A stretch of 39,123 bases of DNA from Candidatus Aenigmatarchaeota archaeon (GCA_018221065.1 JAAOXY010000082.1:1-39123); one strand, 5' to 3'; positions 17,692-38,774 are shown, numbered from the stretch's first letter. Notes: generated from the sequence alone by a model not told the origin. Made by a program: numbers and translations.

Positions 17692-17700
17692 TAGAACAAA
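17692..17700 (+). promoter_or_regulatory. + strand operon motif TAGAACAAA
   Basis: 19 nt upstream of ATG 17720. One of six copies. Confidence 0.45.
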
Positions 17701-17719
17701 TATCAAAGGAGATTTAGTT

Positions 17720-18322
17720 ATGAATGATTATAATAAAGATAATTATGAGATCAAAAAATCTGATATTCATGGGCGTGGGGTTTTTTCAAATAAGAATTTT
17801 AGCGCAGGTGAATTGATTAATTTGGCTATTGATAATATGCAGGCAACACACTTCGGCGGATTCTTAAATCATTCTGATTCTCCAAATGCCGTTACAAGAA
17901 AAAATAAAAATAAGTATTATACTTTTGCTTTGGCTAGAATTAAACCAGGTGATGAAATAGCAGTTGATTATACTGTCAATAAAGATCTTGAGCAACCAGA
18001 ATCTACATGGAAATATCATCAAGAAGCTTCGCCAAATAATGGAGTATTCACTGATACAAATCCAAAAGTAGATGATGAAACTATTTCTTCTTTATATAAA
18101 GGGACTGTTCCTCAAGGAAAAAATGCTGAAGTAGAAGTTGATGACGATGTTGAAGAAAGCACAACTGCCAATCAACCAAATCCTGGTTTCGCTTCTGGGA
18201 TAGATAAGAGCCCGGACGATTCATATCTTAATCTTCTTAAAAAATCTATCAAACCAACAAAGATAGTAATCAATATAACTAAAGATAATAGGGGAGCTGA
18301 TCCTTATAATAAAGTTCACTAA
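17720..18322 (+). CDS. minimal SET-domain methyltransferase-like protein with acidic low-complexity tail (200 aa)
   Basis: ORF track. HGRGVFS..F.AGELI, GGFLNHSDSPNA (NHSxxPN motif), IKPGDEIAVDY (post-SET-like ELxxDY position). Confidence 0.75.
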   Translation: MNDYNKDNYEIKKSDIHGRGVFSNKNFSAGELINLAIDNMQATHFGGFLNHSDSPNAVTRKNKNKYYTFALARIKPGDEIAVDYTVNKDLEQPESTWKYHQEASPNNGVFTDTNPKVDDETISSLYKGTVPQGKNAEVEVDDDVEESTTANQPNPGFASGIDKSPDDSYLNLLKKSIKPTKIVINITKDNRGADPYNKVH

Positions 18323-18362
18323 AAAATACCACACATAATAGTAACCATGTGTAGTATTTTTG
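18321..18362. terminator. bidirectional terminator
   Basis: A-run, ATACCACACAT ... ATGTGTAGTAT, T-run. Lies between convergent genes. Confidence 0.6.
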
Positions 18363-18370
18363 TTTCTCTC

Positions 18371-18538
18371 CTATTTAGACGATTTCCTGTGATGTGTTGA
18401 TTTTCTCTTTTTGGATTTTTTTCTCTTTGCTTTTGCCTGGAATCTTGCTTCCATTCGTTTCTCTCTGGCTCTGGCGTTCAGTATTGTTACCACCGTACTA
18501 AACGAAAGCAATCCAATGTAAAACCACATTTTTCCCAT
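18371..18538 (-). CDS. small membrane protein with highly basic tail (55 aa)
   Basis: In-frame ATG 18538 with GGGGGATAAATACT, the same 17-nt initiation region as at 1937. Confidence 0.55.
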   Translation of the reverse strand: MGKMWFYIGLLSFSTVVTILNARAREKRMEARFQAKAKRKKSKKRKSTHHRKSSK

Positions 18539-18554
18539 AGTATTTATCCCCCTT

Positions 18555-18740
18555 TTAATTAAACATTTTGAGTCTAGGTTGTGTGAAGACCAGGTCACCA
18601 TTCCTCGGATTTATAACATAATCTTCATATATTTCAAGCGTTCGGAATTTTGGTTTTGTCTCTCTTGGGATGAAATGGAACATCTGGTCAAAGGCTAGAA
18701 ACAAACCGGATAGTAATATTATAAATACTGAAATAGTCAT
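18555..18740 (-). CDS. small membrane protein (61 aa)
   Basis: In-frame ATG 18740 with GGAGGTATTTGCT RBS. Promoter core 25 nt upstream. Confidence 0.55.
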   Translation of the reverse strand: MTISVFIILLSGLFLAFDQMFHFIPRETKPKFRTLEIYEDYVINPRNGDLVFTQPRLKMFN

Positions 18741-18764
18741 AGCAAATACCTCCTTAGATTTATT

Positions 18765-18788
18765 CACTAATTAATATATATAGTAATT
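18765..18788 (-). promoter_or_regulatory. early promoter-like cassette core
   Basis: CACTAATTAATATATATAGTAATT. Confidence 0.5.
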
Positions 18789-18797
18789 CATTTTAAA

Positions 18798-18807
18798 TAA
18801 GAACAAA
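18798..18807 (+). promoter_or_regulatory. + strand operon motif TAAGAACAAA
   Basis: 17 nt upstream of ATG 18825. Confidence 0.4.
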
Positions 18808-18824
18808 TATAATGAGGTAAAAAC

Positions 18825-18986
18825 ATGAGAGAATCTTTTCCAAAAAAAGTTATAAGAGAGTTAAAACAGATGTTAGAAGATGCCCCCTTTCCGGATGAGG
18901 GATCTAAAAAAGATAGTAATGATGTTTTAGATGTTTTAGGGTGGAGACTTAATCTGGATGCTGAAGAAGATTCTGAGGAAGAGTGA
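18825..18986 (+). CDS. small acidic protein (53 aa)
   Basis: Hand-translated, 54 codons. GAGGT RBS. Preferred over the antisense track ORF 18788..19021. Confidence 0.5.
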   Translation: MRESFPKKVIRELKQMLEDAPFPDEGSKKDSNDVLDVLGWRLNLDAEEDSEEE

Positions 18987-19000
18987 ATCTTTTTAAATAT

Positions 19001-19009
19001 TAGAACAAA
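19001..19009 (+). promoter_or_regulatory. + strand operon motif TAGAACAAA
   Basis: 23 nt upstream of ATG 19033. Confidence 0.45.
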
Positions 19010-19032
19010 ATCTAAATTCACTTGGGGGTACT

Positions 19033-19479
19033 ATGATTAAAAGTCTTTCTATAATTTTATTGATATTATTGTTTGCAACAACTGGGATGAGTGCACCTTT
19101 ATCATCACAGCCGAATATACTCAAAGAACAACCAATTCAATCTACTTTTTTATATCATGTTTTTATTCTAGACCAAGAAATTATTCCAGCAATTTATAGA
19201 TATTTTGACTTATCAAACTTTAAAAAAGCTCCAACCATAGAGCAGCAAAAAGAAATTGGTAAAAATATAGAGACTGTATTTTCAGCATATACAGCCAAGT
19301 ATAAATTAGATAAGATGAAGGTAACTTTACAGCTTGTGGATAATGATACAAAATTGATGCTTTTTGTATATTTTTATGAATACAACTCAAGAAGTTCACA
19401 ATATACACTTGCTTCTATAGGCCGGCAAATTCCAATTTTTAAAATGATTAACAATTTTGAACTTGAAACTATGGAGTGA
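19033..19479 (+). CDS. secreted protein (148 aa)
   Basis: ORF track. MIKSLSIILLILLFATTGMSAP signal peptide. Confidence 0.75.
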   Translation: MIKSLSIILLILLFATTGMSAPLSSQPNILKEQPIQSTFLYHVFILDQEIIPAIYRYFDLSNFKKAPTIEQQKEIGKNIETVFSAYTAKYKLDKMKVTLQLVDNDTKLMLFVYFYEYNSRSSQYTLASIGRQIPIFKMINNFELETME

Positions 19480-19484
19480 TCGAT

Positions 19485-19889
19485 ATGACTGCAGATGACA
19501 AATACTTGACAAAAAATGATTTGGCGTTACTAATGGAAAGTTATCAGAATATGTTTTTAATGCATAAAAATATTTTAGATCAACAAAGTGATATGAGCGA
19601 TGATCTGAAGAAAATTATAGATACACAAAATGAGATTGTAAAAGGTCAATCTACAGACCTTAATGAAATAGGTAAAATTGTTAATACGTTAGATTCACTT
19701 TCCAGCAAGTTGGAAAAGACATACGATAGTTTAGATACAACAGAGGGAAAATTGATAGAAAAGATAGATCAGCATAATGTCGAGCTTGTAAAATTTGCTG
19801 GGTCTATAACTAATAAAGTTTATTTAGCATGGGTGGGTAGTGCCACTGTTATTTTGGGTCTTATAGGTTTATTTCTTAAATTAAGTTAA
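19485..19889 (+). CDS. coiled-coil protein with C-terminal TM anchor
   Basis: ATG 19485 lies 8 nt after GGAG (the track uses GTG 19476). C-terminal VGSATVILGLIGLFLKL. Confidence 0.7.
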   Translation: MTADDKYLTKNDLALLMESYQNMFLMHKNILDQQSDMSDDLKKIIDTQNEIVKGQSTDLNEIGKIVNTLDSLSSKLEKTYDSLDTTEGKLIEKIDQHNVELVKFAGSITNKVYLAWVGSATVILGLIGLFLKLS

Positions 19890-19904
19890 GAGGACGAAAA
19901 AAGC

Positions 19905-20441
19905 ATGGAGAAATTAAAAAAAGAACTTGAAGAAACAAAGAAAGAATTAGAAAAAACTAAAACTGCTATTTGGGATATGATGAATTATTCTAGTATGTTT
20001 GTTTTAATTCTTGACGATAAAATGTGTATTCAATTTATCAACTGGAGTTTAGCTACAGCACTTGGTTTTAAAAATGAAGACGAGCCTCTTGGAAAATGTT
20101 GGTTGGATTTTATTCCAATAGAGCAGAGAGAAATTATATCAGGAATACATAATTCAATTAAAAATGCCGACGAAGAAAAACATAGAGAAATGATAAACGA
20201 TATTAAATGTGTCAATGGAGATGTGATGTCTATAAAATGGTTTAATACTAAAATAAACCGTGAACATGAATGGACTTTTAGTTTTGGTTTAGTAGTGGAA
20301 GCAGCCAATCAGGTTACAGAGGAATCTCTTAGATCATATTATCATGATATTATTCAGAAAGATCGAACTGCAATTTTGTCACTGAGGGATAAAATATTGA
20401 ACGGGTCTGTAACTCAAGATGTAGGCGAACCAAAACTTTAA
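19905..20441 (+). CDS. PAS-like domain protein (178 aa)
   Basis: ORF track. N-terminal coiled coil, then a PAS-fold-like pattern (..FVLILDDKMCIQFINWSLATALGF..E.LGK.WLDFIP...R..I...I... .DIKCVNGDVMSIKWFNT). Fold-level guess. Confidence 0.6.
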   Translation: MEKLKKELEETKKELEKTKTAIWDMMNYSSMFVLILDDKMCIQFINWSLATALGFKNEDEPLGKCWLDFIPIEQREIISGIHNSIKNADEEKHREMINDIKCVNGDVMSIKWFNTKINREHEWTFSFGLVVEAANQVTEESLRSYYHDIIQKDRTAILSLRDKILNGSVTQDVGEPKL

Positions 20442-20459
20442 TACACGAAAGGAACAACA

Positions 20460-23105
20460 ATGAATTTAAAGAAGATGCTAAAAATTGAAGGGGAGAATTT
20501 AGATGGTGAAATTAAGAAAAGGAATGATGCTAAAGAGGTATTAATATCAGTTAAATATGCTGATGGTCATATTCATCACATCCTACCAGATGAGACAGTA
20601 TCAAAAGAATTAGTTGAAGATGCTGCATCACAAGTCAATCTAGAGTTTTCCAAAGCAATTGAAAACCTCCCACCAGATGAAATCGTTTTTAAAAACCGTC
20701 AAGCGATTGGCGACATCTTAACCATGACAGCAGGAATACGAGATTTTAAAAGCGCTTTCCCAAATACCAGAGTTGGAGTAATAACAACTGCTATGCATCT
20801 CTGGGATCACAACCCTCATATTGATCATAACTTTAAAGACCCTGAAAAAATTTTAGAGATAGGACCGGGGTTTGCTACAAATAAATCAAACCTATGGAAT
20901 CTACATATGTGTAATGCCTTCCGTATGGATATAGAAAACAAACTTCATATTTCATTTCCACAGGGACCAATACGTCCAGATATATGGATGACACAAGAAG
21001 AATATAAACGACCGCCCTTGATTGATGGTCCATATTGGTTGTTTGTTTATGGTGGAGAACCTGGTTGGCCTGCCAAGCAATACCATTTATGGCAAAGAGT
21101 AATAAACATACTAAAAGATGATATTAAGATTGTTCAGCTTGGAGTTAAGGGTCATCCATATCCGCATCTTGATAATACAGTTGATTATATTGGAAAAACT
21201 GAAGATAGAAACACTGGTCTTAGAGATCTTTTTAATTTGTTTTTACATGCTCAAGGGTCGCTTGGTTTAGTTTCCATGCATATGCATTTAAGTGCTGCAT
21301 TTGGAAACCCCTGTGTAGTTGTTGCTGGAGCGCGTGAACCTGCATGGTTTACAAACTATTTTGGACATCAGTATATTCAATCAAATGGTACTATGTTTTG
21401 TGGTGATCATACAGCATGTTGGAAGTGTAAACTTGAAGGATGTCGTAATCTTATAGATAGTAAGATACCAAAATGTGTTGAGGTAATTGAACCTGAGGAA
21501 ATTGCTGATGGTGTTAGAAAGTATTATAGAGGTGGAAGATTAGAGTATGGGAAAAAGATTCCTAATAAATTTTTTAAGAATATAACCCAAGAATCAAGAG
21601 TGTTTGTCGCTCCAAAAACTGAACAAATCGATAATGACTATTTAAAGAAATGGGGATTCAAATGGGGTGGAGGATGCCTTACAGATAGAGATTGGATGTT
21701 TATGAAAGAGGCTATCAAAAAATATAAAGTTAAAAAGATTCTTGAGTTTGGTGCTGGTTTATCATCTCTATTGTTTGGAACCGTTGCTGATCATATAGTT
21801 ACTTATGAAACAATGCCAGGATGGATAAAGAAAGTAGAGCCATTTAAAACTCCAAAGAATACATTTTTGCTTTGGGATGGAAAAACAATTCCTTCTGTAG
21901 ATAAGTTTGATATGGTATTTGTAGATGGTCCGTCTGGTGGGGAAAATAGACAATGGTCAATCAAATATGCATCTGAACGTGCTGATCTGGTTATCGTTCA
22001 TGACGCAGGACGTGTTCCTGAAAGAGAATGGCAAGCCAAGTATCTTGAACCTGAATTTGAGTTAATAGCTAAAGGCGGGCATCGATGTCACATGTGGAAA
22101 AGAAGAACAGCGATTGTAGTCGATACATCGAAACCATTAGCAAGAATGTTAACCACATGTAGAGGTTATGGTGGAAGCGAAAGATCTACTATCAATATAA
22201 TGCAAATGTTATTAGATAAAGGCTATAGAGTAGAATTAGTACCAACCGGAAATATTAGTGGAGAGTATTTGAAAAATATTCCAGAGGGAGTAGTTAAACA
22301 GAATTGGGGACCTATATTAACAGAACCATCTGATTTGACAGTTTTTTATACAAGCGATACAATATGGAGTTTTAATAAAGAACCATATACTACATTTATG
22401 CCATATCTAAATACAAAAAGAAAGGTCATGGTTTTAAACTATAAAATCGGTGGAGCTGGAAATGTGGATTGGACTTTCGGTTGGGATAAATATTTATTCT
22501 TAAATTCTGAACATGAAGGGGAGATGATTAAGAGGATTCCACAAGCTGTAACTAAGGTGTTGGCACCACCAACTGATTTAACTGAATTTTTTAAAGTTCA
22601 ACCATATTATGGATTCCCTCTAAAACTGATCCGGCATAGTAGTCAAGGAGATAATAAATATCCTGATTATATGAATGATATGATAGAGAATATATTAGAA
22701 ATAAATCCGGGGATTGAGTTTCATTTTATGCCCCCAAGATCAGATTGTATGGTTCATCCACAAGTCCATAAATATGCAAAGAATCAACCTCCTGTATATG
22801 AGTTTCTGAAAAATGGAAATTGCTTCTTCTATCATTTACCCAATAATTATACTGAAGGAGGTCCTCGCACAATTGTAGAAGCTCATGCTTCTGGTTTATC
22901 AGTAATATGTGATAATCACTCTGGACCAAAAGATAGAGTTACAGATGAAACGGGTTGGCTGTGTAATAGTCAAGAAGATTATTTAGAAGTTATAAAAGAG
23001 ATTATAAATAAACCAGAACTTCTCAGGATTAAAGGAGAAGCTGCCAGAGAAAGAGCTAGAAAAGAATTTATTCCAGAAAAATGGATAGAGGAGATATTAA
23101 CATGA
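20460..23105 (+). CDS. three-domain fusion: GT9 (heptosyltransferase-like) / class I methyltransferase-like / GT4 glycosyltransferase (881 aa)
   Basis: ORF track. The N-terminal region has IGDILTMTAGIRDFKSAFPNTRVGVIT (GT9-like). The middle has ILEFGAGLSS...MVFVDGP (Rossmann SAM-like). The C-terminal region has EGGPRTIVEAHASGLSVI (GT4 EX7E motif). Confidence 0.8.
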   Translation: MNLKKMLKIEGENLDGEIKKRNDAKEVLISVKYADGHIHHILPDETVSKELVEDAASQVNLEFSKAIENLPPDEIVFKNRQAIGDILTMTAGIRDFKSAFPNTRVGVITTAMHLWDHNPHIDHNFKDPEKILEIGPGFATNKSNLWNLHMCNAFRMDIENKLHISFPQGPIRPDIWMTQEEYKRPPLIDGPYWLFVYGGEPGWPAKQYHLWQRVINILKDDIKIVQLGVKGHPYPHLDNTVDYIGKTEDRNTGLRDLFNLFLHAQGSLGLVSMHMHLSAAFGNPCVVVAGAREPAWFTNYFGHQYIQSNGTMFCGDHTACWKCKLEGCRNLIDSKIPKCVEVIEPEEIADGVRKYYRGGRLEYGKKIPNKFFKNITQESRVFVAPKTEQIDNDYLKKWGFKWGGGCLTDRDWMFMKEAIKKYKVKKILEFGAGLSSLLFGTVADHIVTYETMPGWIKKVEPFKTPKNTFLLWDGKTIPSVDKFDMVFVDGPSGGENRQWSIKYASERADLVIVHDAGRVPEREWQAKYLEPEFELIAKGGHRCHMWKRRTAIVVDTSKPLARMLTTCRGYGGSERSTINIMQMLLDKGYRVELVPTGNISGEYLKNIPEGVVKQNWGPILTEPSDLTVFYTSDTIWSFNKEPYTTFMPYLNTKRKVMVLNYKIGGAGNVDWTFGWDKYLFLNSEHEGEMIKRIPQAVTKVLAPPTDLTEFFKVQPYYGFPLKLIRHSSQGDNKYPDYMNDMIENILEINPGIEFHFMPPRSDCMVHPQVHKYAKNQPPVYEFLKNGNCFFYHLPNNYTEGGPRTIVEAHASGLSVICDNHSGPKDRVTDETGWLCNSQEDYLEVIKEIINKPELLRIKGEAARERARKEFIPEKWIEEILT

Positions 23106-23278
23106 AAGTAAAAGTTGGAGATAAAGTTTATGATGGGAACGATGTTCCTGTAATGGTTATTTTAAGAAAAGAGGATAAGGAGAATATTAAAAACATGCAT
23201 CCTGACGCAACAAAGTATTGTTCGTATCCAGAATCAATGACTGTTAAGGAAGTTCAGGAATGGATGAAAACTGAATAG
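23102..23278 (+). CDS. hypothetical protein (58 aa)
   Basis: ATG 23102 in an ATGA overlap with the upstream stop. GGAG upstream. Confidence 0.6.
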   Translation: MKVKVGDKVYDGNDVPVMVILRKEDKENIKNMHPDATKYCSYPESMTVKEVQEWMKTE

Positions 23279-23896: not shown

Positions 23897-24663
23897 TGGG
23901 ATTAGTAGAAAGGAAGTATGGTCATTTATTAGAAATAGCTTTGGAGTTGGGAAAGACATCTTCAGTATTAAGAGTTGAAGATAATAGTTTTACATATGCT
24001 AGAAATCCGCAATATCTTTCAAAGTTAAAAGATACAAAGAAAAATGTTCAGGTTATGGTACCTTTTCCTATATATAAAGAAGCTGAACAGTTACCAATGA
24101 ATGTTGATGTTCACTTTATAGATGGAGAAGATAATATAGAATATATATGGGCTTATATTCATAATGAAGTTAATAAAGACGTTGAACCAGCTCCTATCAT
24201 TATTGGAAATAATTGTTATATACATGAAACTGCAATTATTGGAGTTCATGGAAATACATATGCTCTGGCTCCAGATGGAAGTCGTATTCACTTAAAAGAA
24301 ATTGGCGGGGTTCGTCTTGAAGATGATGTAGATGTCGAAGCTTTGTCAATTGTCCATAGATCATGTTTTAATAATACAGTTATTGGTAAAGGTTCTAAGG
24401 TATGTGTTAAATGTAATATTGGACATAATGTTAGAATAGGAAAAAATTCATTAATAGCTCCTGGAGTCTTATTAGGCGGAGGCACTACAGTAGGGGATAA
24501 TTGTTTTATATGGCAAGGGGTTATTACCCGAAGTTATATAAATATTTGTGATAATGCAATTGTGGGAGCGGGTTCTGTAGTTCTACATGATCTAAGGGAG
24601 CCGGGAATATATATTGGCTCTCCAGCTAGGTATGTAAAACCATATGATGAAACTTTGAGGTAA
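23896..24663 (+). CDS. left-handed beta-helix (hexapeptide-repeat) acyl/acetyltransferase
   Basis: ATG 23896 in a TAATG overlap, GGTGG 8 nt upstream. Hexapeptide repeats IGHNVRIGKNSLIAPGVLLGGGTTVGDNCFIWQGV. Confidence 0.8.
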   Translation: MGLVERKYGHLLEIALELGKTSSVLRVEDNSFTYARNPQYLSKLKDTKKNVQVMVPFPIYKEAEQLPMNVDVHFIDGEDNIEYIWAYIHNEVNKDVEPAPIIIGNNCYIHETAIIGVHGNTYALAPDGSRIHLKEIGGVRLEDDVDVEALSIVHRSCFNNTVIGKGSKVCVKCNIGHNVRIGKNSLIAPGVLLGGGTTVGDNCFIWQGVITRSYINICDNAIVGAGSVVLHDLREPGIYIGSPARYVKPYDETLR

Positions 24664-24666
24664 ATT

Positions 24667-25671
24667 ATGAAAATAGTTGTAGAAGATGTGTTTGGAAAAA
24701 ATCAGTTTAATGCCTGTAAAGAATATAATAGAAGATTGGACGTTATGGAAATTAACATATCAAAGATACATAACAGTTCAAGTAAATCGAGATTTAAAGA
24801 AGGAACTTATGAAAGATGGTATAGGGAGGCTAATACTATTTATATGAATAATAAAAGAGATCAAGATCTGTTTGATAAACTGGGAAAAGATTTATGTGTT
24901 GTTATACCCTCTCATAGATATCAGAGAGTTTGGTTAAAGGCATGTTTGGAAGGAGTTTCTAAGCTTGGCTACTTTTCTATACTGGCTTATGATAATCCAT
25001 TTTTTCAACCAGCTCATAAATTAGATGCAATGCTTCCATCTCCAGCAACTCTTATGTTGGCTGATTATTTATCTTTCAAACCAAGGACTTATCATAGTGG
25101 GGTTGGTTTTCCTCATCTGTGGAATATGTTGTTTGCTGTTACTCAAGCACAGGCGTTTGGTTTTAAATATATATTTTGTATCAATGGTGACTTTATTATG
25201 GAGAGGCCAGAGAATTTTGAACAGCTAAGAGATATGTTGGGGGATGGAGATATATTTCCTTTGGCATGGGATCCAAAAAGACCAACTTGTGGAACTGCTG
25301 CCTTTATAGCAAAAACTGACCATCAGGTAGAATTTTGGAGAAATTATGCGAAAACCTTTTATCAAAATATGGGAAACGCCGAAGCAAGGCTTGGGAAATA
25401 TTATACAAAGAAGAAATTAAAAGTGGTCCATTTTGAGCCAGGCTCTTTATCACATCAGATGCCTAACCCTAAATCTACATGGTATAATACTATTGGTTTG
25501 AGGCATTTACATGCAGAGCATAAAATAAGAAAATGGAATAGGCAAGAACCCATTGAAGAAAAATATTTCGAGAAACAATTTTTTCCTCCTCCCGGAAAGA
25601 ATATAATAGAGCAATATTGGAGGACTGGAGATAAGAAATTTCTTAAGCAATGGTGGGGAAAAGGAAAATAA
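24667..25671 (+). CDS. hypothetical protein, possibly GT-A-like (334 aa)
   Basis: ORF track. CVVIPSHRY and a later NGD are only a weak hint. Embedded in the sugar island. Confidence 0.7.
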   Translation: MKIVVEDVFGKNQFNACKEYNRRLDVMEINISKIHNSSSKSRFKEGTYERWYREANTIYMNNKRDQDLFDKLGKDLCVVIPSHRYQRVWLKACLEGVSKLGYFSILAYDNPFFQPAHKLDAMLPSPATLMLADYLSFKPRTYHSGVGFPHLWNMLFAVTQAQAFGFKYIFCINGDFIMERPENFEQLRDMLGDGDIFPLAWDPKRPTCGTAAFIAKTDHQVEFWRNYAKTFYQNMGNAEARLGKYYTKKKLKVVHFEPGSLSHQMPNPKSTWYNTIGLRHLHAEHKIRKWNRQEPIEEKYFEKQFFPPPGKNIIEQYWRTGDKKFLKQWWGKGK

Positions 25672-26661: not shown

Positions 26662-27672
26662 ATGTTACGAGACACTATGATAAGAGGAATAGCATCTGGG
26701 ACTTTAATATGGAAAGGTCCTTGGGTTGACAGTAGTGCCTATGTTGTCAATGATTTAGTCGAAAATAATGGTAGTTCGTATATTGCTACATCGGATCATA
26801 TTTCTTCTCCAGTAACAGAACCAGGAGACGGAACTTCCTGGACTACAGTATGGGATTTAGTAGCTGCAAAAGGCGCTGATGGTACTGATGGAGTAGATGG
26901 TCTTAATGGTTTAGACGGTGTAAGTTTTATATGGCGAGGACAGTGGTCCGATTCTAGTTCATATATAATTAATGACGTTGTATATAATAGCGGTAGTTCA
27001 TATATATCTACAGCAGATCATAACGCCAGTTTCCCAACAGAACCTGGGGACGGAACTTCCTGGACGACTGTCTGGGATTTAATGGCTCAAAAAGGTGACG
27101 ATGGAGATCAAGGACCTCAAGGACCAGATGGCCCACAAGGAGATCCAGGACCTCAAGGTCCAGCAGGTCAAGATGGAGTGTTTGATAGGTGTGATCAATT
27201 AATACTTGAAATGGAAATGGAGTTTAAAACTTCATTTCTTTGTAATTATAAAGAGTTTGCATATAGCGCTCAAAAACTATTAATTGATGTTGATATATAT
27301 ACTGATGCTACAGCTAATGTTAAATTATTTCATAAGGACCTAACATACAATGCTCAGAAACAACTAATCCAAACTGATCTTACGAGAATTTCAGATGGTG
27401 CATTGTTAACTAGCATTTTTTCATATGACGCTCAAAAGAATTTAATTTCAATAGAGAGAAGCGGTTATTGTTCTTGTTCAAGTAGCTCTTCAAGTAGTCG
27501 TAGTTCAAGTTCAAGTAGTAGATCAAGCTCATCAAGCAGTTGTAGTTCAAGTTCAAGCAGGAGTTCAATCTCATCAAGTTCAAGTAGTGCTGCTATTCCA
27601 GAAGGAGCAAGAATAACAGATGATGGAGAAATTCGGATAACAGATGATGGAGAGACCAGAATTATAGATTAA
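26662..27672 (+). CDS. collagen-like tail fibre protein with duplicated CBM5/12-like module and poly-Ser tract (336 aa)
   Basis: ORF track. Two copies of IW.G.W..SS.Y..ND.V...GSSYI.T.DH....TEPGDGTSWTTVWDL, each followed by G-X-Y repeats. Ser-rich tract near 27466-27590. Confidence 0.8.
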   Translation: MLRDTMIRGIASGTLIWKGPWVDSSAYVVNDLVENNGSSYIATSDHISSPVTEPGDGTSWTTVWDLVAAKGADGTDGVDGLNGLDGVSFIWRGQWSDSSSYIINDVVYNSGSSYISTADHNASFPTEPGDGTSWTTVWDLMAQKGDDGDQGPQGPDGPQGDPGPQGPAGQDGVFDRCDQLILEMEMEFKTSFLCNYKEFAYSAQKLLIDVDIYTDATANVKLFHKDLTYNAQKQLIQTDLTRISDGALLTSIFSYDAQKNLISIERSGYCSCSSSSSSSRSSSSSSRSSSSSSCSSSSSRSSISSSSSSAAIPEGARITDDGEIRITDDGETRIID

Positions 27673-31870: not shown

Positions 31871-33235
31871 ATGGCTAAGATAGTTGATCCAGATGATCTA
31901 AATCAAGGAACCGAAATTATCATTGATGCTACGGCATTAACAATTGCATTACAAGTTGCAGGAAATTTATCATGGGATGGGGTATCTTTAAAAGCCCTTT
32001 ACTCATTTATTAAGGAAGAGTGGAGATATGATGCTGATCTTATTCCAGTAGTCTTTCCATTTACTCCTATTACTGATGAACAGTTTGAACTAATCAATGG
32101 ATGGGATTTTGCTGATTCAACATCTGAGCTTCTTATTCGAGATGGTGGTTGGGCTGTAACCGATGTTGGTGTAACTTCAAAATCATTTTTTAATTTAACT
32201 ACGCTTGGATCGTTTGAAGATTCAAACAATGATAGAGCTTATTATATTCAACAAGCAGATCAAACTGCTGTTATATATACAAATTTGGCTGGTGAGGTAA
32301 ACCAGGGTATTCAATTCTTTCAAAATGGAGTATATGACTACTCTGACTTTTTTAAGATTTTCTTAAGAGAGCAGGGTAAAAGATATGATAGTTACGACCT
32401 TTTAACTGAACAGAATTTGACTTCATTGACTTACCGTAAGTATGCGTTGCCTTTATCAAACTCATTAGATGCTAATATTTCTGCTAGTGATAATGATATT
32501 GAAACAGATACTGGAGCCGCATATTCTACTATTACAGTATCGTACTATTCTACTGTGCAAAATAAAGATATTGGAGGTACTTTATATCCATTCCATGTTG
32601 TTATTGATGCTGCTGGTTTGACTAAAGATTTTGTTTATGAAAAGATTCAATATTTACTAAGGCAAGATGCTGATATTGATGCTGGCCCAGATTTTCTATA
32701 TGTCTGGGGTACAGTAACAGATGAATTATTACAATTTATTGGGAATGATCTTTATACCAATCTAACATCATTTGGTGGAACATTTATCGAGAATCATAAT
32801 GTTGACGATGAAAATAATATCTTTTTCACCGATGATAATGGAGTTGTAAGATTTTATCCATTTGTTTCAACTGGACAAATTAACTTTAATGATAACTTAC
32901 AAAATGATCCAGATGCTTTCTTCTGGATGTTCTATACAACAAACCCAAGTGGAAATTATGGAACAAAAGACGCTATTATTGTTCAAGATGCATCGGATTC
33001 AACTGCAAATGATATTGCGGCACTTATTAATGGAGCAGCAGCATATCAATTTACATATGATTATGATAATAATAACCAGGGAGGGAGAACCCCTGCAACT
33101 GATGCAGATATTACGCTTGTAGCTATTGGATTAGATACTGCTCAATATGTTTCAACTACAGGAACGATTGCTAGAGCGAAGAGTCAACAATACTCATTAG
33201 TTGCACCGCTTGAAAGAAACTATTCAAATCCGTAA
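31871..33235 (+). CDS. putative virion structural protein (454 aa)
   Basis: ORF track. AAGGAG RBS. No motif recognised; the call rests on context only. Confidence 0.75.
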   Translation: MAKIVDPDDLNQGTEIIIDATALTIALQVAGNLSWDGVSLKALYSFIKEEWRYDADLIPVVFPFTPITDEQFELINGWDFADSTSELLIRDGGWAVTDVGVTSKSFFNLTTLGSFEDSNNDRAYYIQQADQTAVIYTNLAGEVNQGIQFFQNGVYDYSDFFKIFLREQGKRYDSYDLLTEQNLTSLTYRKYALPLSNSLDANISASDNDIETDTGAAYSTITVSYYSTVQNKDIGGTLYPFHVVIDAAGLTKDFVYEKIQYLLRQDADIDAGPDFLYVWGTVTDELLQFIGNDLYTNLTSFGGTFIENHNVDDENNIFFTDDNGVVRFYPFVSTGQINFNDNLQNDPDAFFWMFYTTNPSGNYGTKDAIIVQDASDSTANDIAALINGAAAYQFTYDYDNNNQGGRTPATDADITLVAIGLDTAQYVSTTGTIARAKSQQYSLVAPLERNYSNP

Positions 33236-33256: not shown

Positions 33257-33823
33257 ATGCCATTTAAAAATGGAAACATTCCTTGGAACAAAGGTAAAAT
33301 TGGTTTACAGAAGGCTTGGAACAAAGGAATAAGTCGGTCAGAAGAAATAAAGAAAAAAATTAGTGAATCCTGTATTGGAAGAATATCTTCTTTTAAAGGT
33401 AAAAGACATACCAACGAAAGTAAAAAGAAAATGTCTCTTTCTAAAAAAGGAATATATTATGGAGTGAATAATCCTAACTATGGAAATGGAGAAAAAATGT
33501 TGGGCGAGAAAAACCCTGCATGGAAGGGCGGATCTTCGTTTCAAGGGTATTGTCAAGTATGGGGCGATTCAGAATATAAACATACTATTAGAATTAGAGA
33601 TTCATTTACTTGTCAAAATTGTGGAATAAGCGAGTTATTATCTTTAAAAGTTTTTGATGAAGTTTTAAGTATTCATCATATAGATTATGATAAACAAAAT
33701 TGTAATCCTAATAATTTAATTACTGTATGTAGGTCCTGTAATAGTAAAGCAAACAACCGAAGAGAAGAATGGATTGAAATATACAAGAATGTGATGGAGA
33801 AAAAATATGGATGTTGTCTTTGA
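33257..33823 (+). CDS. HNH homing endonuclease with NUMOD3-like repeats (188 aa)
   Basis: ORF track. Repeated G..W/HNKG..S.E.KKK.S units. C-terminal HHIDYD...NLITVCRSCN HNH motif. Confidence 0.85.
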   Translation: MPFKNGNIPWNKGKIGLQKAWNKGISRSEEIKKKISESCIGRISSFKGKRHTNESKKKMSLSKKGIYYGVNNPNYGNGEKMLGEKNPAWKGGSSFQGYCQVWGDSEYKHTIRIRDSFTCQNCGISELLSLKVFDEVLSIHHIDYDKQNCNPNNLITVCRSCNSKANNRREEWIEIYKNVMEKKYGCCL

Positions 33824-34301
33824 TGGAACTGCAAGGCTTATTATCATCAACACTGGGATAACAGAGATAGCTGCCGCTGATATTTATTCCTGGTGGAAGC
33901 AATGGGTTCTTGCTCAAAATGCAAATTTTTTAAGAGCATTCAGCACAACGGGAGGAGAACCTGTTTCGCCAACAACTGATATCTCAGCATACTTTTTTCT
34001 AGACAATGATTGGAGACTAAGACCGTGGGAAGGAGATCATCAACTTGTTATACAAGGAAATATCTTTGTTGCAGGCGGTGTTGGTAGTATTGTGGTGCCT
34101 ACTTTAGGTGATTATAATGTTCTTGTGACTAGCGAAGTTTCCCCTCAATCACAGGCAGTCTCAACTGGAGTTGGAACAGTAGACGAAGTTAAAGATGCTG
34201 TTTGGGATACACAAGTTTCAGAACATCAAGATAGCGGAACAACTGGAGAGGCGTTAGATAAGATTGATAAGAATACTACCTTAATACCAGGGACACTATA
34301 A
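33807..34301 (+). CDS. putative virion protein (164 aa)
   Basis: ORF track. Overlaps the HNH gene end by 17 nt. Confidence 0.75.
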   Translation: MDVVFDGTARLIIINTGITEIAAADIYSWWKQWVLAQNANFLRAFSTTGGEPVSPTTDISAYFFLDNDWRLRPWEGDHQLVIQGNIFVAGGVGSIVVPTLGDYNVLVTSEVSPQSQAVSTGVGTVDEVKDAVWDTQVSEHQDSGTTGEALDKIDKNTTLIPGTL

Positions 34302-34313
34302 AGGAGATTAAGC

Positions 34314-34835
34314 ATGCTACAGGGAGTTTTAAACGAACTTGTTTCTGAGCATTTTACTATTGCAGATAGTGATGGTAATTTAGTACCAGGAGTTGATCCT
34401 GCTTCTATTAGTCTCTTTGTTTATAATCCAAGCGGAACAGAAGTATCTGGCTCTGTTGGTGGTTCTATTTCAGAGTTGGGGGATGGAAATTATAAATATA
34501 CATTTACCCCAGATTCTATCGGCGTATGGTATGTAGTTGCTACTCACCCAACGTATTTTCCTTGGGGTAAAACAGATGACGTACAAGTGTTTAATGTTGA
34601 CATTGATGATGTTTATACTGAAGTAGAAAAAACTTTAGGACTATCTAAACATAATATGTTTATTGATGATGCAACTTATGATGAGTATGGGAATATGGTT
34701 TCAGCAAGAGTAAGGACATATTCTGATCCTACATCAGTTGGTACATCAAGCGATGTAATTGAAACATATCGAATAACTGCTGATGGAAGTGAATGTGGGC
34801 AATTCACCTTTTGGAAGCAAGTGGTTGGACCATAA
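34314..34835 (+). CDS. putative virion protein (173 aa)
   Basis: ORF track. Confidence 0.75.
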   Translation: MLQGVLNELVSEHFTIADSDGNLVPGVDPASISLFVYNPSGTEVSGSVGGSISELGDGNYKYTFTPDSIGVWYVVATHPTYFPWGKTDDVQVFNVDIDDVYTEVEKTLGLSKHNMFIDDATYDEYGNMVSARVRTYSDPTSVGTSSDVIETYRITADGSECGQFTFWKQVVGP

Positions 34836-34847
34836 AAGGAGATATAA

Positions 34848-35060
34848 ATGAGCGTAAGTATAGCAACCGGTGGGATGTTTCAAGAGTGTTGTGGATCCCA
34901 AATTAGTACAGGAGGCGCTCCATCTGCTCCAGCATTAGCCGAAAAATATGAGCTAGATCCTTTTAGTGTAAAAATTATAAAAGTTTATTTTGAAGATGTT
35001 AAGAAAAAACACAAACTTCCAAAAATTTCTATTAGGGAAGTTAGATTTGATGATTTTTAA
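34848..35060 (+). CDS. hypothetical protein (70 aa)
   Basis: ORF track. AAGGAG RBS. Confidence 0.6.
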   Translation: MSVSIATGGMFQECCGSQISTGGAPSAPALAEKYELDPFSVKIIKVYFEDVKKKHKLPKISIREVRFDDF

Positions 35061-35071
35061 GAGAGGTAAAA

Positions 35072-35683
35072 ATGTTATATTTAAATCCAAATAAAGAAAA
35101 GACATTGACTTTTGAAGTTCAATTATCAGGAGCTTCTTCAAGTGAGATAACTGGTTATGTTAGATTCATAGTTGAGGGAGTTGAAATTGGATTTCCTGCT
35201 ATAATAAAAGAGGATGAAATACAAGCAGTTATAAGTCCATTGAAAAACTTTTTAAAGAATCCTTTAAAGAATGGTACTATTTTTGAAGCAAATCTAGAAC
35301 TATACACAGAAGAACAAGAATATTTTAATGCATGGAAGGGCGAAATAGAAGTTAAGATGCCAGTTATGATTGAAGCGAAATTAAATGAAGAAGAAAAGGT
35401 TTCTGGTGTTTCTGTTAAAGCCAAAATGGTAGCGCCAAAAGAAAAACCATCACAGGGTAAAGTAATTACGGAAACTAAAATCAGCAAAAAAGAACAACTA
35501 AAAACGAAACTTAGAAACCTAACAGAAGAAGATATCTATAATTATATGGCGAGAGCAGGTACGAAAAATAAACAGATTCAAGAAATTGTTTTATCTGAAG
35601 CTCGAAAGAAAGCTGAGTCAGGAGACTTGTTAAAAGTATTCAAGGAAGTTGTAAACGCTCTAAAAAAACCTAAGAAAAGATAG
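35072..35683 (+). CDS. hypothetical protein (203 aa)
   Basis: ORF track. Confidence 0.75.
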   Translation: MLYLNPNKEKTLTFEVQLSGASSSEITGYVRFIVEGVEIGFPAIIKEDEIQAVISPLKNFLKNPLKNGTIFEANLELYTEEQEYFNAWKGEIEVKMPVMIEAKLNEEEKVSGVSVKAKMVAPKEKPSQGKVITETKISKKEQLKTKLRNLTEEDIYNYMARAGTKNKQIQEIVLSEARKKAESGDLLKVFKEVVNALKKPKKR

Positions 35684-35828
35684 GAGGAAACTCTTGAGAT
35701 TAAACTGGAGACTACGCAGAAGATGGCAAATAAAAGAGTTTAGAAAGGCAAGATGTAAATTAAAGCAAAAGAGGAAATAAAAATATTACAAACGGAAGTT
35801 GAAGGTTCAATGAACCGAGGAGTTGGTT

Positions 35829-36194
35829 ATGAAGAAAGAAATAAAAAACTATTGGAGAGCATTTGGGGTTAAATGTCTTGAAAATTTAGCATCAGTTAAA
35901 GTATGGTTTTTTATATTACCATTTATTGTCTCAACCTTAATATTAGTATGGCTTGTTGGATCACACGTCCTTTTTGTTAAACTGATGCTGGCCAAAGTTG
36001 ATACCCCTACAATGGTAGCTGTTCTAAAAGAAATGAAAACGATTACTGAAACATTTATTGCTTGGTGCACATTTAATGTAAGTTTGGCTGGTACTATAAT
36101 TGTTGTTCGTGAAACATTTAAAGTTAAAAAGTTAATTGCATTAAATGATGAAGAAAAAGATAATTCCGATACCATTGATAAAATGAACGCATAA
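35829..36194 (+). CDS. two-TM membrane protein, holin candidate
   Basis: ATG 35829 lies 8 nt after GAGGAG (the track uses TTG 35823). Two hydrophobic helices. Heads the lysis cluster. Confidence 0.6.
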   Translation: MKKEIKNYWRAFGVKCLENLASVKVWFFILPFIVSTLILVWLVGSHVLFVKLMLAKVDTPTMVAVLKEMKTITETFIAWCTFNVSLAGTIIVVRETFKVKKLIALNDEEKDNSDTIDKMNA

Positions 36195-36204
36195 GGAGGC
36201 GAAT

Positions 36205-36549
36205 ATGGGACCTGAAACTATTTTATATGGACTTGGTGCAATTGGTATTTTTGGGGCATTAGCTTTATTCCTCCCAAAACTATTGGGAAAATCAAAGAAA
36301 AATAAGATTCTTGACAAATTTAAAAAAGACGAAAAACAAAAAGAATTACAAGAAGAATCTGTAGTAATATCAAAAGAGCAACAAGTTATAGCTAAACAGA
36401 TAAAAGCATCAGATCATGCTTCAGAAGAAACCAAAAAGAAAATCAAAAAGAAGCTACAAAAGGCAGCAGTAGAAATTCAAAAAACATTAAAAGAAGATAA
36501 TATAGCTTCAATTGATGAACAGATTGACGAAGAGTGGAAGGATCTATAA
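36205..36549 (+). CDS. N-terminally anchored charged protein (114 aa)
   Basis: ORF track. TM segment ILYGLGAIGIFGALALFL. Confidence 0.7.
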   Translation: MGPETILYGLGAIGIFGALALFLPKLLGKSKKNKILDKFKKDEKQKELQEESVVISKEQQVIAKQIKASDHASEETKKKIKKKLQKAAVEIQKTLKEDNIASIDEQIDEEWKDL

Positions 36550-36550
36550 A

Positions 36551-37087
36551 ATGAAAAAACTAATAGCATTAATAATCATTGGATCATTTGTTTTGTTAGC
36601 TTGTGCTCCGCCACCGTTTAAACCATTTAAACCGGAGATAATTAAGTTTGAACCGTCTCCTTCATATTCAGTTACAGATCAGATTAATGCCATACCAAAA
36701 CCACAACCGCCAAAGAGAATATATGTAAAAAAGATATCTGATAAAGATTTTGAGGTTGTAGCTGCCAAAGAGGAAGCTACTCATATTATGCTGGCTCCAG
36801 CTGAATATGCTAAAGTTGGCGCATTGGTTAAGTTAACAAAAACTTATAAAGAGTTAGTTTTAGATCAAGAGGTATTAATGAATACATATATTGATCAAAT
36901 CAATGCTCTTAAAGAACTTCTTGCAATGGAACAGAGAAAGGCAGAGGTTTATAGAGAACTATGGATGAGCTCTGAAAATGCATACAGATATGAAGTTTGG
37001 GAACACAAATGGGATAACAGGATTAATAAAGCAGGCCTTTATGGAATTACAGTTGGGTCAATTATAGTATTGCTGTTACTACTCTAA
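36551..37087 (+). CDS. unimolecular spanin candidate (lipoprotein signal plus C-terminal TM)
   Basis: In-frame ATG 36551. MKKLIALIIIGSFVLLAC lipobox, a Pro-rich linker, a coiled segment, and a C-terminal LYGITVGSIIVLLLLL. Immediately upstream of the endolysin. Confidence 0.65.
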   Translation: MKKLIALIIIGSFVLLACAPPPFKPFKPEIIKFEPSPSYSVTDQINAIPKPQPPKRIYVKKISDKDFEVVAAKEEATHIMLAPAEYAKVGALVKLTKTYKELVLDQEVLMNTYIDQINALKELLAMEQRKAEVYRELWMSSENAYRYEVWEHKWDNRINKAGLYGITVGSIIVLLLLL

Positions 37088-37097
37088 GGAGAATCAT

Positions 37098-37532
37098 ATG
37101 TATAAACCAAATCATTTTGGAATTAAAGAACTAGTTCCAAAATCTTTATATAATAAATATTCAAGCAGAGGTGATAACTTTTTATTTCAAGTTATATTTG
37201 ATGAACGTCTTTTGAGGATAATTGATACGATCAGAGAAGAGTTTGGATCAATGACTGTAAACAATTGGTCATGGGGTGGACCATTTCAATATCGAGGAAT
37301 TCGACCTCCTGATTCTAATATTGGTGCTGCATTAAGTCAACATAGATTTGGAAGAGCTGTTGATATGACTCCAAAAAATATATCCCCAGATGATATGAGG
37401 AAGCAAATTATTGATGACCAAAATTCTGATAAATGGAAAGATATTGGTGGTCTTGAAATGGGTATAACATGGTTTCATGTTGATGTTAGAGCAAGAACCG
37501 ACGATAAAAAAATAAATTTGTTTTACCCATAA
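37098..37532 (+). CDS. peptidase M15-family endolysin (144 aa)
   Basis: ORF track. SQHRFGRAVD (Hx6D zinc ligands) and WFHVD. Confidence 0.85.
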   Translation: MYKPNHFGIKELVPKSLYNKYSSRGDNFLFQVIFDERLLRIIDTIREEFGSMTVNNWSWGGPFQYRGIRPPDSNIGAALSQHRFGRAVDMTPKNISPDDMRKQIIDDQNSDKWKDIGGLEMGITWFHVDVRARTDDKKINLFYP

Positions 37533-37543
37533 GGAATATTAAA

Positions 37544-37888
37544 ATGGACTGGAAAAAGTTTATAACCCCTGGAATTATTGTGGTTGTTATCATATCTCTA
37601 GTTGGAATAATCTATAATGGGCTTGCTTCTGAATTGAACGAAAAAGCAGATAATAAAACAATTCAGATGTATATTTTACAGCAGGAAAAAGATTCTGTTA
37701 GACGGGATAAGTTTTCTGAGGAACAAAAAAAAGAGAATGAACTAAAGCAGAGAGAACTTGAACTAAAGCAGAGAGAACTTGAACTAAAACAAAAAGAACT
37801 CGAAACCAAACAGTCCGGAGATGATGATAAGTTTATGATGCAACAAAAATCATTAGAACAATTAATAGAAGTATTAAAGGAGAAGTAA
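37544..37888 (+). CDS. N-terminally anchored coiled-coil protein (114 aa)
   Basis: ORF track. TM helix followed by an ELKQRELELKQRELELKQKELE repeat. Confidence 0.7.
   Translation: MDWKKFITPGIIVVVIISLVGIIYNGLASELNEKADNKTIQMYILQQEKDSVRRDKFSEEQKKENELKQRELELKQRELELKQKELETKQSGDDDKFMMQQKSLEQLIEVLKEK
37739..37801 (+). repeat. 3 x 21-nt tandem repeat (GAACTAAAGCAGAGAGAACTT)
   Basis: Units at 37739-37759, 37760-37780 and 37781-37801 (degenerate). In frame and encoding heptads. Confidence 0.8.
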
Positions 37889-38208
37889 TGGATTCAGCTT
37901 TATTTGATGCGATCAATTCTATACAATGGGCGTTACTTTTAAAGTTGGCGGTTGTTGCGGTTCTTGGCTTATATTTAAAAAAACATTTTGATAATTTTGC
38001 ATCTTATATGATGTTTAGATCAAATAAGGACCTTGGAAAAAATGTTAAAGTATTACTCGATGGGAGAGAGGGTTTCATTACTCAAGTTAGTTGGAGGTTT
38101 ATCTATGTAGAATTTCATGATAAGAGTACTGAAAGAATTATTCCTATTACTAAATGGACTTCCTTAAAATGGGAAGTCTGTAAAAATGGAAAAGATAATA
38201 AGGAGTAA
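37888..38208 (+). CDS. membrane protein (106 aa)
   Basis: ORF track. TAATG overlap. One TM helix. Confidence 0.7.
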   Translation: MDSALFDAINSIQWALLLKLAVVAVLGLYLKKHFDNFASYMMFRSNKDLGKNVKVLLDGREGFITQVSWRFIYVEFHDKSTERIIPITKWTSLKWEVCKNGKDNKE

Positions 38209-38211
38209 AAA

Positions 38212-38742
38212 ATGGATAAACTATTATATCTTATTACTGGCTATGAAATAGCAGAGTCAGAAAATTATTCTGATAAAGCTAAAGTACAGCTTATAACTTG
38301 GTTGAATGAAGCTACAGAATCCCAAGTTAAGGCTTTTTTGCTGGATGGAAAAATCGTTAGATTGAATGAACAGGAGGAAGAGTCTGTAAATGATCGATTT
38401 GAAATTAGTGAAGTTGGGGGACGGATTGCCAAGTTGAGAAAATCTTGGTCTAGTCAAGCGGGATCTGGGGCTGGAATGAATGTCTTTTGGCTTGCATATA
38501 GAAAATTAAGATCTATGTTTTCAGCTTGTACTAAAAGGTGTGGTACATATGAAGTTAATACTTCAAGAAGACAACACTGTATGATTAAATGTAAAGTACA
38601 ACAAGCACAGGGTGAAATAGCTGCTGCTAAAAAAGCTAATAATGCTGCCGCAGTTCAGAAAGCTTCAGCAAAATTGGCGAAGGCAAATGCAGCGCTTTCA
38701 AAATCTCAAGCTTCATTTGGATCTCGTGGAGCAGATAGATAA
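38212..38742 (+). CDS. hypothetical protein (176 aa), paralog of 38823..
   Basis: ORF track. The N-terminal 60 aa align with the next gene. Confidence 0.75.
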   Translation: MDKLLYLITGYEIAESENYSDKAKVQLITWLNEATESQVKAFLLDGKIVRLNEQEEESVNDRFEISEVGGRIAKLRKSWSSQAGSGAGMNVFWLAYRKLRSMFSACTKRCGTYEVNTSRRQHCMIKCKVQQAQGEIAAAKKANNAAAVQKASAKLAKANAALSKSQASFGSRGADR

Positions 38743-38764
38743 AAGATCTAATCTGTTGAAATTT

Positions 38765-38774
38765 TAAGAACAAA
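38765..38774 (+). promoter_or_regulatory. + strand operon motif TAAGAACAAA
   Basis: 48 nt upstream of ATG 38823. Confidence 0.4.

Follow-up and report, generated by a model that had tools for sequence, protein, structure and literature searches.

What is the word AGAACAAA that recurs shortly before genes on one strand of this DNA, and what might read it? The window, that is, the whole stretch of 39,123 nucleotides that we analysed, had been described in an original prediction as carrying six copies of this motif at the heads of plus-strand operons, as one of two promoter classes. We suggest that the six copies probably serve a jumbo phage as late (or middle-to-late) promoters, and that one of its own multisubunit RNA polymerases (RNAPs), rather than the host enzyme, probably reads them.

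A repeated word in the gaps before plus-strand genes

All six copies are present, at 17693, 18800, 19002, 26625, 28886 and 38767, and all lie on the plus strand; the coordinates given originally are at most 2 nt off, one or two leading bases having been included. Each copy is intergenic, and a gene in the same orientation starts no more than 150 nt away. Between the last base of the 8-mer and the ATG there are 19, 17, 23, 29, 26 and 48 nt, respectively, in line with the predicted 17-48 nt. The ~34 kb of coding sequence in the window hold no copy of AGAACAAA. The gaps preceding plus-strand genes in the plus arm amount to ~725 nt of the 78,246 strand positions, and by our own estimate the chance that all six copies land in those gaps is ~1e-12. 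Of the seven gaps in front of plus-strand genes that exceed 40 nt, all but the one at 35684-35822 contain the motif.

As a control we used 55 permuted words with the same composition as AGAACAAA, which occur in the window with means of 4.1 copies, 0.6 intergenic copies and 0.4 co-oriented ones; the sole other high scorer among them, GAACAAAA, overlaps AGAACAAA. Shuffling of the whole window gives 3.3 expected copies, and six or more copies in 9 of 100 shuffles. The latter significance is merely mild because such a shuffle disregards position; the result is significant because of where the copies lie, in intergenic and co-oriented places. The repeated word is genuine. Its flanks also agree with those described before: T stands at -2 in five of the six copies, T or A at -1, A or T at +8 and +9, T at +11 in four copies, and A at +12 to +14 in six, five and five copies, respectively. 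In full, the element reads TT-AGAACA(A/T)A and continues into A/T-rich sequence; a purine occupies the position 13 nt past the first A.

The genes headed by the motif are those listed in the original prediction, the SET gene being recognised by Pfam and the tail fibre by PHROG. P1 (17691..17707, plus strand, ctAGAACAAATATCAAA; predicted start ~17706) precedes the SET-domain gene at 17720-18322, with the Shine-Dalgarno (SD) site AGGAG at 17707-17711. P2 (18798..18814, plus, taAGAACAAATATAATG; predicted start ~18812-18814) is the poorest match among the six copies 3' of the 8-mer, precedes a 53-aa gene at 18825-18986, and is oriented divergently to an early cassette on the minus strand. P3 (19000..19016, plus, ttAGAACAAAATCTAAA; predicted start ~19015) heads the operon which begins at 19033 with a signal-peptide protein and runs through a glycosyltransferase island to 26605. 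P4 (26623..26639, plus, ttAGAACAAAATATAAA; predicted start ~26638) has the full consensus and heads the tail-fibre gene at 26662-27672 together with tandem 158-aa paralogs. P5 (28884..28900, plus, ttAGAACAAAAAATAAA; predicted start ~28899) precedes the long operon of structural genes that runs from 28920 to ~38742, and P6 (38765..38781, plus, taAGAACAAATAATAAA; predicted start ~38780) precedes the last paralog, the gene at 38823; both have TCTAA 20 nt upstream. A possible weak internal copy at 37855..37872 (plus, TTAGAACAATTAATAGAA), with one mismatch in the 8-mer, lies within the end of the gene 37544-37888, directly before the SD and ATG of the gene at 37888. It was left out of the site count.

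Before other genes stands a different conserved motif, the early cassette, so the two classes are distinct, as had been proposed. Its core CTATATATATTAA occurs in 11 exact copies, all on the minus strand: one at 18771..18783, divergent from P2, and ten others at 17544, 17465, 15384, 10765, 10186, 9815, 8577, 6612, 4493 and 3486.

A jumbo-phage clade that carries the motif

The window is a fragment of a jumbo phage of ~310 kb, the genome size that follows from the CheckV completeness values of the clade contigs (58-79% complete for the related contigs, 71% for the contig G026). The close relative G24 has 80-92% protein identity to the window at 35.7-38.2 kb, carries a near-identical P6 site, and is collinear with G026 at 0.7-16.7 kb. 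G016 encodes a 62%-identical homologue of the window gene 34314-34835 and is syntenic with the window at 34.3-39 kb. Megablast of the window's 17-30 kb against a phage collection found no close GenBank relative. Contig C40 is a phage fragment within a small-genome bin and is foreign to the organism binned there. Both the late motif and the early cassette are absent from the bin's other 604,755 bases and are therefore not signals of the binned organism.

In L009 and L037-L045, relatives identified via protein homology, tttAGAACA(A/T)AatATAAAt stands before an SD and ATG. An exact 16-mer scan matched more than 118 viral contigs, many of them with two or three copies on the same strand. Counts of the strict motif versus its reversed control in three contigs of 180-248 kb are 15 versus 0 in G026, 8 versus 0 in G016 and 10 versus 1 in G017; AGAACAAA itself has 17 intergenic copies in G026, versus 2.3 for the control words. 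Hence the search of further sequence that the original prediction had proposed finds the motif common to a large phage clade, with intergenic enrichment in G026. The opposite strand bias of the two classes is seen in the window but goes no further than this fragment: a relative of 223 kb has the motif on either strand, in every case directed at the downstream gene. We rejected another strand bias as a sign of conservation. AGAACAAA occurs 10 times in G2 (86 kb) and 9 times in G3 (104 kb), all on one strand, but these copies are coding and reflect the A-rich coding strand; the two contigs share with the window only the fibre module at 29.5-34 kb. A literature search for the 8-mer as a phage promoter returned nothing but unrelated papers.

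In the relatives the motif precedes the major head protein, a virion-protein/tail-sheath operon and an HNH-large terminase (TerL) operon, as well as one polymerase operon and a tRNA. The virion genes downstream (head, sheath, terminase and, in the window, tail fibre) are consistent with the late operons proposed originally. One copy in G026 lies within a tRNA array, where the 5' end of a tRNA-Ile is at +16 from the motif start. As there is no SD before this tRNA, the signal probably acts on transcription rather than on translation.

Predicted start site and candidate polymerase

Among 99 sites no SD starts before +12/+13, and 15 sites cluster at +12 to +17. SDs that begin from +13 after the motif start would leave room for very short leaders, as the original prediction suggested. 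From the SD lower bound of +13 and the tRNA end at +16 we place the start at about +13, where a purine is found in 86% of 82 sites chosen without the exact scan pattern. The pattern-independent sites conserve TATAAA only weakly: T reaches 40% at +9 and 37% at +11, while +12, the equivalent of AR9 -1, has A in 59% and T in 27%, with T spread across +9 to +12. The constancy of AACA is partly by construction, as it lies inside the 8-mer used for the site search, and AGAACA(A/T)A is fixed by the search pattern in the site comparisons. We suggest that the recognised element is TT-AG-AACA-(A/T)A and that transcription would start ~13 nt past the first A of AGAACAAA, at the purine in the A/T-rich tail. 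AACA would thereby come to lie at -11 to -8, as in AR9 late promoters, and leaders in the window would be 12-43 nt long. A weak wCYAA element is seen ~17-20 nt upstream of AGAACAAA in about half of the sites; we do not regard it as established, since many of the sites carrying it are orthologous copies of one another.

The window contains no polymerase gene and is linked to polymerases via the related contigs, by synteny. G026 encodes two beta' proteins (903 and 1006 aa) and two beta proteins (1000 and 1358 aa), as identified by PHROG and Pfam, and beta-like polymerase genes are found in G026, G016, G017 and G018. Thus the phage RNAP that the original prediction proposed to look for has a counterpart in two multisubunit sets in clade contigs. 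The beta and beta' of G026 are unsplit, with an N-terminal part corresponding to phrog_2986/2987 and a C-terminal part corresponding to phrog_2962/3015 in one protein. For both beta' proteins, bacterial beta' outscores all else among the best 60 PDB matches, and the nearest polymerase proteins in GenBank phages have 24-28% identity. In G016 and G026 the motif also stands before the operon of the larger beta'/beta pair, which fits a polymerase that needs packaging into virions.

Specificity subunits such as AR9 gp226 and phiKZ gp68 diverge past sequence detection. A phmmer search with AR9 gp226 against all ORFs of at least 100 aa in G026, a contig 71% complete, returned nothing at E<=10, and a 492-aa candidate adjoining the polymerase operon has no match in PDB structures. 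The T7-type polymerase family PF00940 has no match in the bin or in eight contigs connected to the window by the fibre/structural protein, among which G001 (L009) is the only close relative and G002, G003 and G005 share only the fibre/structural module with the window; this search left out G016, G017, G018 and G026, and the control genomes could not score for the family. G017 encodes ThyX, and both G016 and G026 have a ThyA-family protein, so that, judging by gene content only, the DNA is probably not uracil-substituted.

The principal alternative, which we consider unlikely, is that host RNAP reads the sites with a small phage sigma-like factor, TATAAA(T) being a T4-type -10 (TATAAATA) and AGAACAAA its upstream extension. 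T4 late promoters carry TATAAATA at about -13..-6 as their sole conserved element, with the start 6-7 nt downstream, and depend on gp55/gp33/gp45. The sites studied here resemble them in the A/T-rich TATAAA-like stretch, in having no -35 and in the late virion genes downstream; the full-consensus copies hold TATAAAT, which gives seven of the eight bases of the T4 late consensus. Bacterial-like beta' makes sigma-type recognition conceivable, and about half of the sites have the weak element 17 nt upstream of AGAACAAA. However, the invariable portion of these sites is AGAACA(A/T)A (in comparisons where the search pattern fixes it) and not TATAAATA, and TATAAA shows little conservation. The T4 geometry is also at odds with the sites: a -10 at +9..+16 would set the start at ~+22, which lies beyond the SD for at least 15 sites and, in G026, falls within the tRNA. 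Moreover, the clade possesses polymerases of its own, and the search for a sigma-like factor proposed in the original prediction reveals no recognisable sigma70 region 2 in the clade, with no Sigma70_r2 in seven clade contigs. The one Sigma70_r2 match in the bin lies on contig C59, outside the phage, and was rejected as the phage's own factor. Given the bacterial-like beta', a sigma-like partner too diverged for detection is possible.

Other sigma-type signals do not suit the gaps either. None of the six gaps gave a match in a scan for the sigma70 consensus (TTGACA-17-TATAAT-like), and such sites are fewer overall than in shuffles (66 versus 92). We rejected an ECF-type -35 (GAAC), whose -10 would land in or past the SD, and a Bacteroidota-type TAnnTTTG on the opposite strand (TTTGTTCT...TATAT), whose spacing is off by one and which is directed away from the genes.

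Somewhat less probable still is that the motif is not a promoter at all, being instead an RNA site (for processing, or a translation enhancer) or the site of a phage regulator beside an unrecognised promoter. The motif is invariably just 5' of the SD and is A-rich like some translation enhancers, yet its distance from the SD ranges from 13 to more than 80 nt, one copy precedes a tRNA that has no SD, and the motif stands at operon heads and not at each gene. A leader starting at the motif would include neither the conserved TT nor the optional upstream element, and the same gaps, some of just 46-58 nt, show no other promoter-like signal. That chance, or the composition of the A-rich coding strand, produced the copies is scarcely credible: in spite of the shuffle counts and of the complete strand bias in the unrelated G2 and G3, which is purely coding-strand composition, it is already refuted by the placement statistics (six of six copies non-coding, where control words give 0.4 such sites) and by the conservation of the extended motif across many relatives.

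Comparison with the promoters of AR9 and phiKZ

The reading as late promoters served by the phage's own RNAP has its nearest known counterpart in AR9. The late promoters of AR9/PBS1 have the form 5'-A(-11)ACA-(6N)-T-A/G(+1) and are used by the non-virion multisubunit RNAP (PMC5312081, PMC7598289, PMC9209446). The sites described here share with them AACA at an equal inferred distance from the predicted start, a purine at the predicted +1, the lack of a -35/-10 pair, very short predicted leaders and a position before virion genes and a tRNA. The clade likewise encodes two beta/beta' polymerase sets and has a companion AT-rich early promoter with ATATATATTA. Hence we suggest that the motif is most likely a stricter form of AR9's known late promoter.

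There are also clear differences. The motif here is longer and stricter, TT-AG-AACA-WA with 8 fixed bases, the T that AR9 has at -1 is not conserved, and about half of the sites have an extra weak element ~20 nt upstream, which the AR9 model does not include. In phiKZ/AR9-like jumbo-phage RNAPs beta and beta' are each split into two genes; unlike these, the clade's beta and beta' are unsplit and nearer to the bacterial ones, and a gp226 homologue was not found among the ORFs of G026. Template-strand recognition in AR9 requires deoxyuridine at -11 and -10, whereas the DNA of this clade probably does not contain the uracil that the AR9 enzyme requires.

In phiKZ the late promoter is T(-3)ATG(+1) and is unpredictable from sequence (PMC7598289). 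phiKZ resembles the clade in its two-polymerase strategy and in conserved AT-rich early promoters that are detectable from sequence (PMC7598289). However, its late signal is merely TATG at the start, unlike the strong upstream 8-mer found here. According to a review of jumbo-phage polymerases, middle and late promoters of such phages are unpredictable from sequence (PMC7598289); in the present case an invariant 8-base core makes a probable late signal recognisable by sequence alone, and this signal is common to more than 100 environmental contigs. If our reading is true, the genes of a large uncultured jumbo-phage clade could be sorted into early and late classes, and the packaged polymerase set could be guessed as the set behind a late promoter. 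It would also provide a defined template for how an unsplit bacterial-like phage polymerase finds its promoters without a recognisable sigma or uracil DNA.

More tentatively, the AR9-type reading (AACA ~10 nt before the start, with a ATATATATTA-type early promoter) might be an old feature of a wider uncultured radiation of ~310-kb jumbo phages with unsplit bacterial-like beta/beta' and probably thymine (or otherwise modified) DNA. In the clade studied here the signal may have been extended to TT-AG-AACA-WA, with an optional further element ~33 nt before the start, which would suggest that a specificity subunit recognises it in a two-part, sigma-like manner.

Finally, the minus-strand cassette CTATATATATTAAT is probably the matching early promoter. 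AR9 early promoters have the consensus AAATATATATTAT-(6N)-G, and CTATATATATTAAT has the ATATATATTA of the AR9 early promoter, with 10 of 10 core bases and a purine 6 nt on. In this respect it resembles the AR9 promoter that is read by the polymerase injected along with the DNA.

Placement of the motif in the window

The 8-mer core AGAACAAA occurs six times in the 39,123-base window (17693, 18800, 19002, 26625, 28886 and 38767), each time on the + strand. All six copies are non-coding, and 17–48 nt separate the last base of the 8-mer from a + strand ATG that has a Shine-Dalgarno (SD) sequence, which bears out the original prediction on their location. Seven gaps ahead of + strand genes exceed 40 nt, and six of them carry the motif. 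Ungapped alignment of the six copies gives T-W-AGAACAAA-W-W-N-T-A-A-A, and a weighted scan of the window sets them clearly apart from the rest, with one doubtful copy at 37855. No sigma70-like promoter was found by a consensus scan in any of the six motif-bearing gaps.

Shuffling of the whole window gives 3.3 expected copies of AGAACAAA, and six or more in 9 of 100 shuffles; this test is blind to position. For 55 control words of the same letters the window means are 4.1 copies, 0.6 intergenic copies and 0.4 copies that have a gene starting in the same direction within 150 nt, and the sole other high scorer among them is the overlapping GAACAAAA.

Conservation of the motif and the genes behind it

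The first relatives were found via the 454-aa structural protein at 31871-33235, which is 45% identical to Synechococcus phage Syn5 gp53. The module of this protein (29.5–34 kb) is common to otherwise unrelated phage contigs of 40–104 kb. In two of the contigs that share it, G2 (86 kb) and G3 (104 kb), AGAACAAA is completely strand-biased. We rejected this bias as a sign of conservation, since the copies are coding and just the fibre module is in common with the window; it is coding-strand composition.

In the true relatives the motif is kept in front of genes. In L009, a relative with 78% identity, ctttttAGAACATAATATAAAAT stands before a gene, nine contigs reached via the 176-aa protein at 38212-38742 have tttAGAACAAAatATAAAt before an SD and ATG, and an exact scan for TAGAACAAAATATAAA finds at least 118 viral stretches, many of them bearing two or three copies on the same strand. 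The strict pattern AGAACAWAWWNTAAA was counted on whole records against a reversed control, with 15 and 0 copies, respectively, in the related phage contig G026 (223 kb), 8 and 0 in G016 (248 kb) and 10 and 1 in G017 (180 kb); three complete unrelated records hold 1–4 strict copies. Within G026, 17 of the 48 AGAACAAA copies are intergenic versus 2.3 for control words. The late motif and the early cassette, a separate motif that lies on the minus strand in the window, also form a divergent pair on opposite strands, back to back within some 35 nt, at 18765-18815 of the window; the pair is conserved in relatives (G22, G24, G016, L044 and L103). Orthologues of gene 34848 (MSVSIATGGMF...) have the late motif in front in four relatives (G016, L038, L040 and L041), whereas the window has there a junction of 12 nt (34835-34848); thus, close relatives differ by gain or loss of promoters.

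None of the related contigs is complete, and G026 is linked to the window through G24, whose proteins are 80–92% identical to those of window 35.7–38.2 kb and which is then collinear with G026 at 0.7–16.7 kb, the tail-sheath module. G016 has a homologue of window gene 34314-34835 (62% identical) and synteny with window 34.3–39 kb. In G026 the late motif precedes the major head protein, a virion protein with the tail sheath behind it, an HNH gene with the large terminase next in line, other HNH genes, and tRNA-Ile (165061-165153, minus strand; L173 5061-5153) in an array of six tRNAs, where it lies in the 34-nt tRNA-Asn/tRNA-Ile spacer. The early cassette of G026 stands before replication genes and other genes. 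The sequence thus supports, as far as it can show, the proposed second class of + strand promoters separate from the early cassette.

Each of three paralogous HNH endonuclease genes of G026 (24086-25024, 105193-106080 and 217612-218466) is directly preceded by a late motif of its own, and the three look like mobile genes travelling with a late promoter. One of them is an insertion immediately before the large terminase.

The original prediction proposed a search for a phage sigma-like factor or RNA polymerase. G026 encodes two beta/beta′ sets, with beta′ of 903 and 1006 aa and beta of 1000 and 1358 aa, each one unsplit ORF; Sigma70_r2 has no match in the clade contigs. Like polymerase genes are present in G016, G017 and G018, and genes of this kind were not found in the complete records whose motif copies are due to chance. 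The search for a T7-type polymerase, which covered the bin and the contigs reached via the fibre module, gave no match. The 1006-aa beta′ is about 25% identical to polymerase subunits of phiKZ-, AR9- and Staphylococcus-type jumbo phages, and among solved structures both G026 beta′ subunits score best against bacterial beta′. In G016 and G026 the operon of the larger beta′/beta pair is headed directly by the late motif, with a terminator hairpin just upstream of it in G026, and the other pair lies within a long early-type block. This arrangement is expected if the larger enzyme is made late and packaged, while the other one is made early.

Architecture of the putative promoter and predicted transcription start

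At 99 sites both the SD and the start codon are clear; with the first A of AGAACAAA as the reference, none of their SDs starts upstream of +12/+13, and 15 sites cluster at +12 to +17. The 5′ end of tRNA-Ile in G026 is at +16, and in 82 sites that were not picked by the exact scan pattern, +13 is the downstream position kept best (A 73%, G 13%). All three observations would fit a start at about +13, and we predict transcription to begin there. The predicted starts in the window are near 17706, 18813, 19015, 26638, 28899 and 38780 on the + strand. The leaders would then be 12–43 nt, in line with the very short leaders anticipated from the distance to the ATG.

Such a start would put AACA at −11 to −8. 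In phage AR9 the late promoter is A(-11)ACA-(6N)-T-A/G(+1), read by the non-virion polymerase, and the early promoter is AAATATATATTAT-(6N)-G (PMC5312081, PMC7598289). The early cassette of the window, CTATATATATTAAT-(5N)-R, has ATATATATTA in common with the annotated AR9 early promoters; hence, both promoter classes resemble those of AR9. However, unlike in AR9, the late core extends over more bases and is more strictly conserved, the T at −1 is not kept, and a weak wCYAA element lies about 20 nt upstream in about half of the sites, a signal partly confounded by orthology. The polymerase genes are also unsplit, and a homologue of AR9 gp226 was not detected in G026. Taken together, the sequence evidence supports the motif being a variant form of the AR9-type late promoter of jumbo-phage polymerases.

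An RNA-level element or a regulator site would be an alternative reading of the same gaps, but it fails, as the motif is also found before a tRNA, its distance to the SD varies and the gaps of 46–58 nt hold no other promoter. A T4-type late promoter fails as well, since the geometry is wrong and the conserved bases are not those expected. Chance is excluded by the placement statistics and by the conservation in relatives.

A further difference from AR9 is that the relatives carry a ThyX or ThyA-family gene, which suggests that uracil DNA is unlikely in this clade. The ThyA-family protein of 267 aa (G016 43708-44052; G026 185962-186300) matches the thymidylate synthase model weakly, at 38–40 bits, and could be a thymidylate synthase or a pyrimidine hydroxymethylase; its identity would matter for the question of DNA modification. 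G026 also encodes a family B DNA polymerase (180653-183877; L174 653-3877) with an N-terminal domain of the uracil-DNA-glycosylase superfamily (Pfam UDG, 66 bits).

Origin of the contig

The window is the whole of one contig in a 644-kb bin of 109 contigs, rated 78% complete, and this contig is alone among them in resembling the phage relatives. The other 604,755 bases of the bin contain no copy of the extended late motif or of the early cassette. The minus arm of the window carries small early-type genes and a DNA ligase, and the + arm a SET-domain gene, a sugar-modification island, fibres and lysis-type genes. The window has no polymerase gene; capsid, terminase and replication genes are absent, and hence it is a fragment. 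It appears to be a piece of a jumbo phage that was binned with a small-genome organism whose G+C is similar. CheckV completeness is 4–10% for contigs of 12–30 kb and 71–79% for contigs of 223–248 kb, which corresponds to genomes of about 310 kb.

Between structural genes of the window lies a 188-aa HNH-like gene (33257-33823), at the place of which the close relative L009 has just a gap of 96 nt that contains a hairpin; this points to a recent insertion. ARAGORN finds a tRNA with the anticodon TTA at 7902-7973 on the minus strand, which would read the UAA stop codon.
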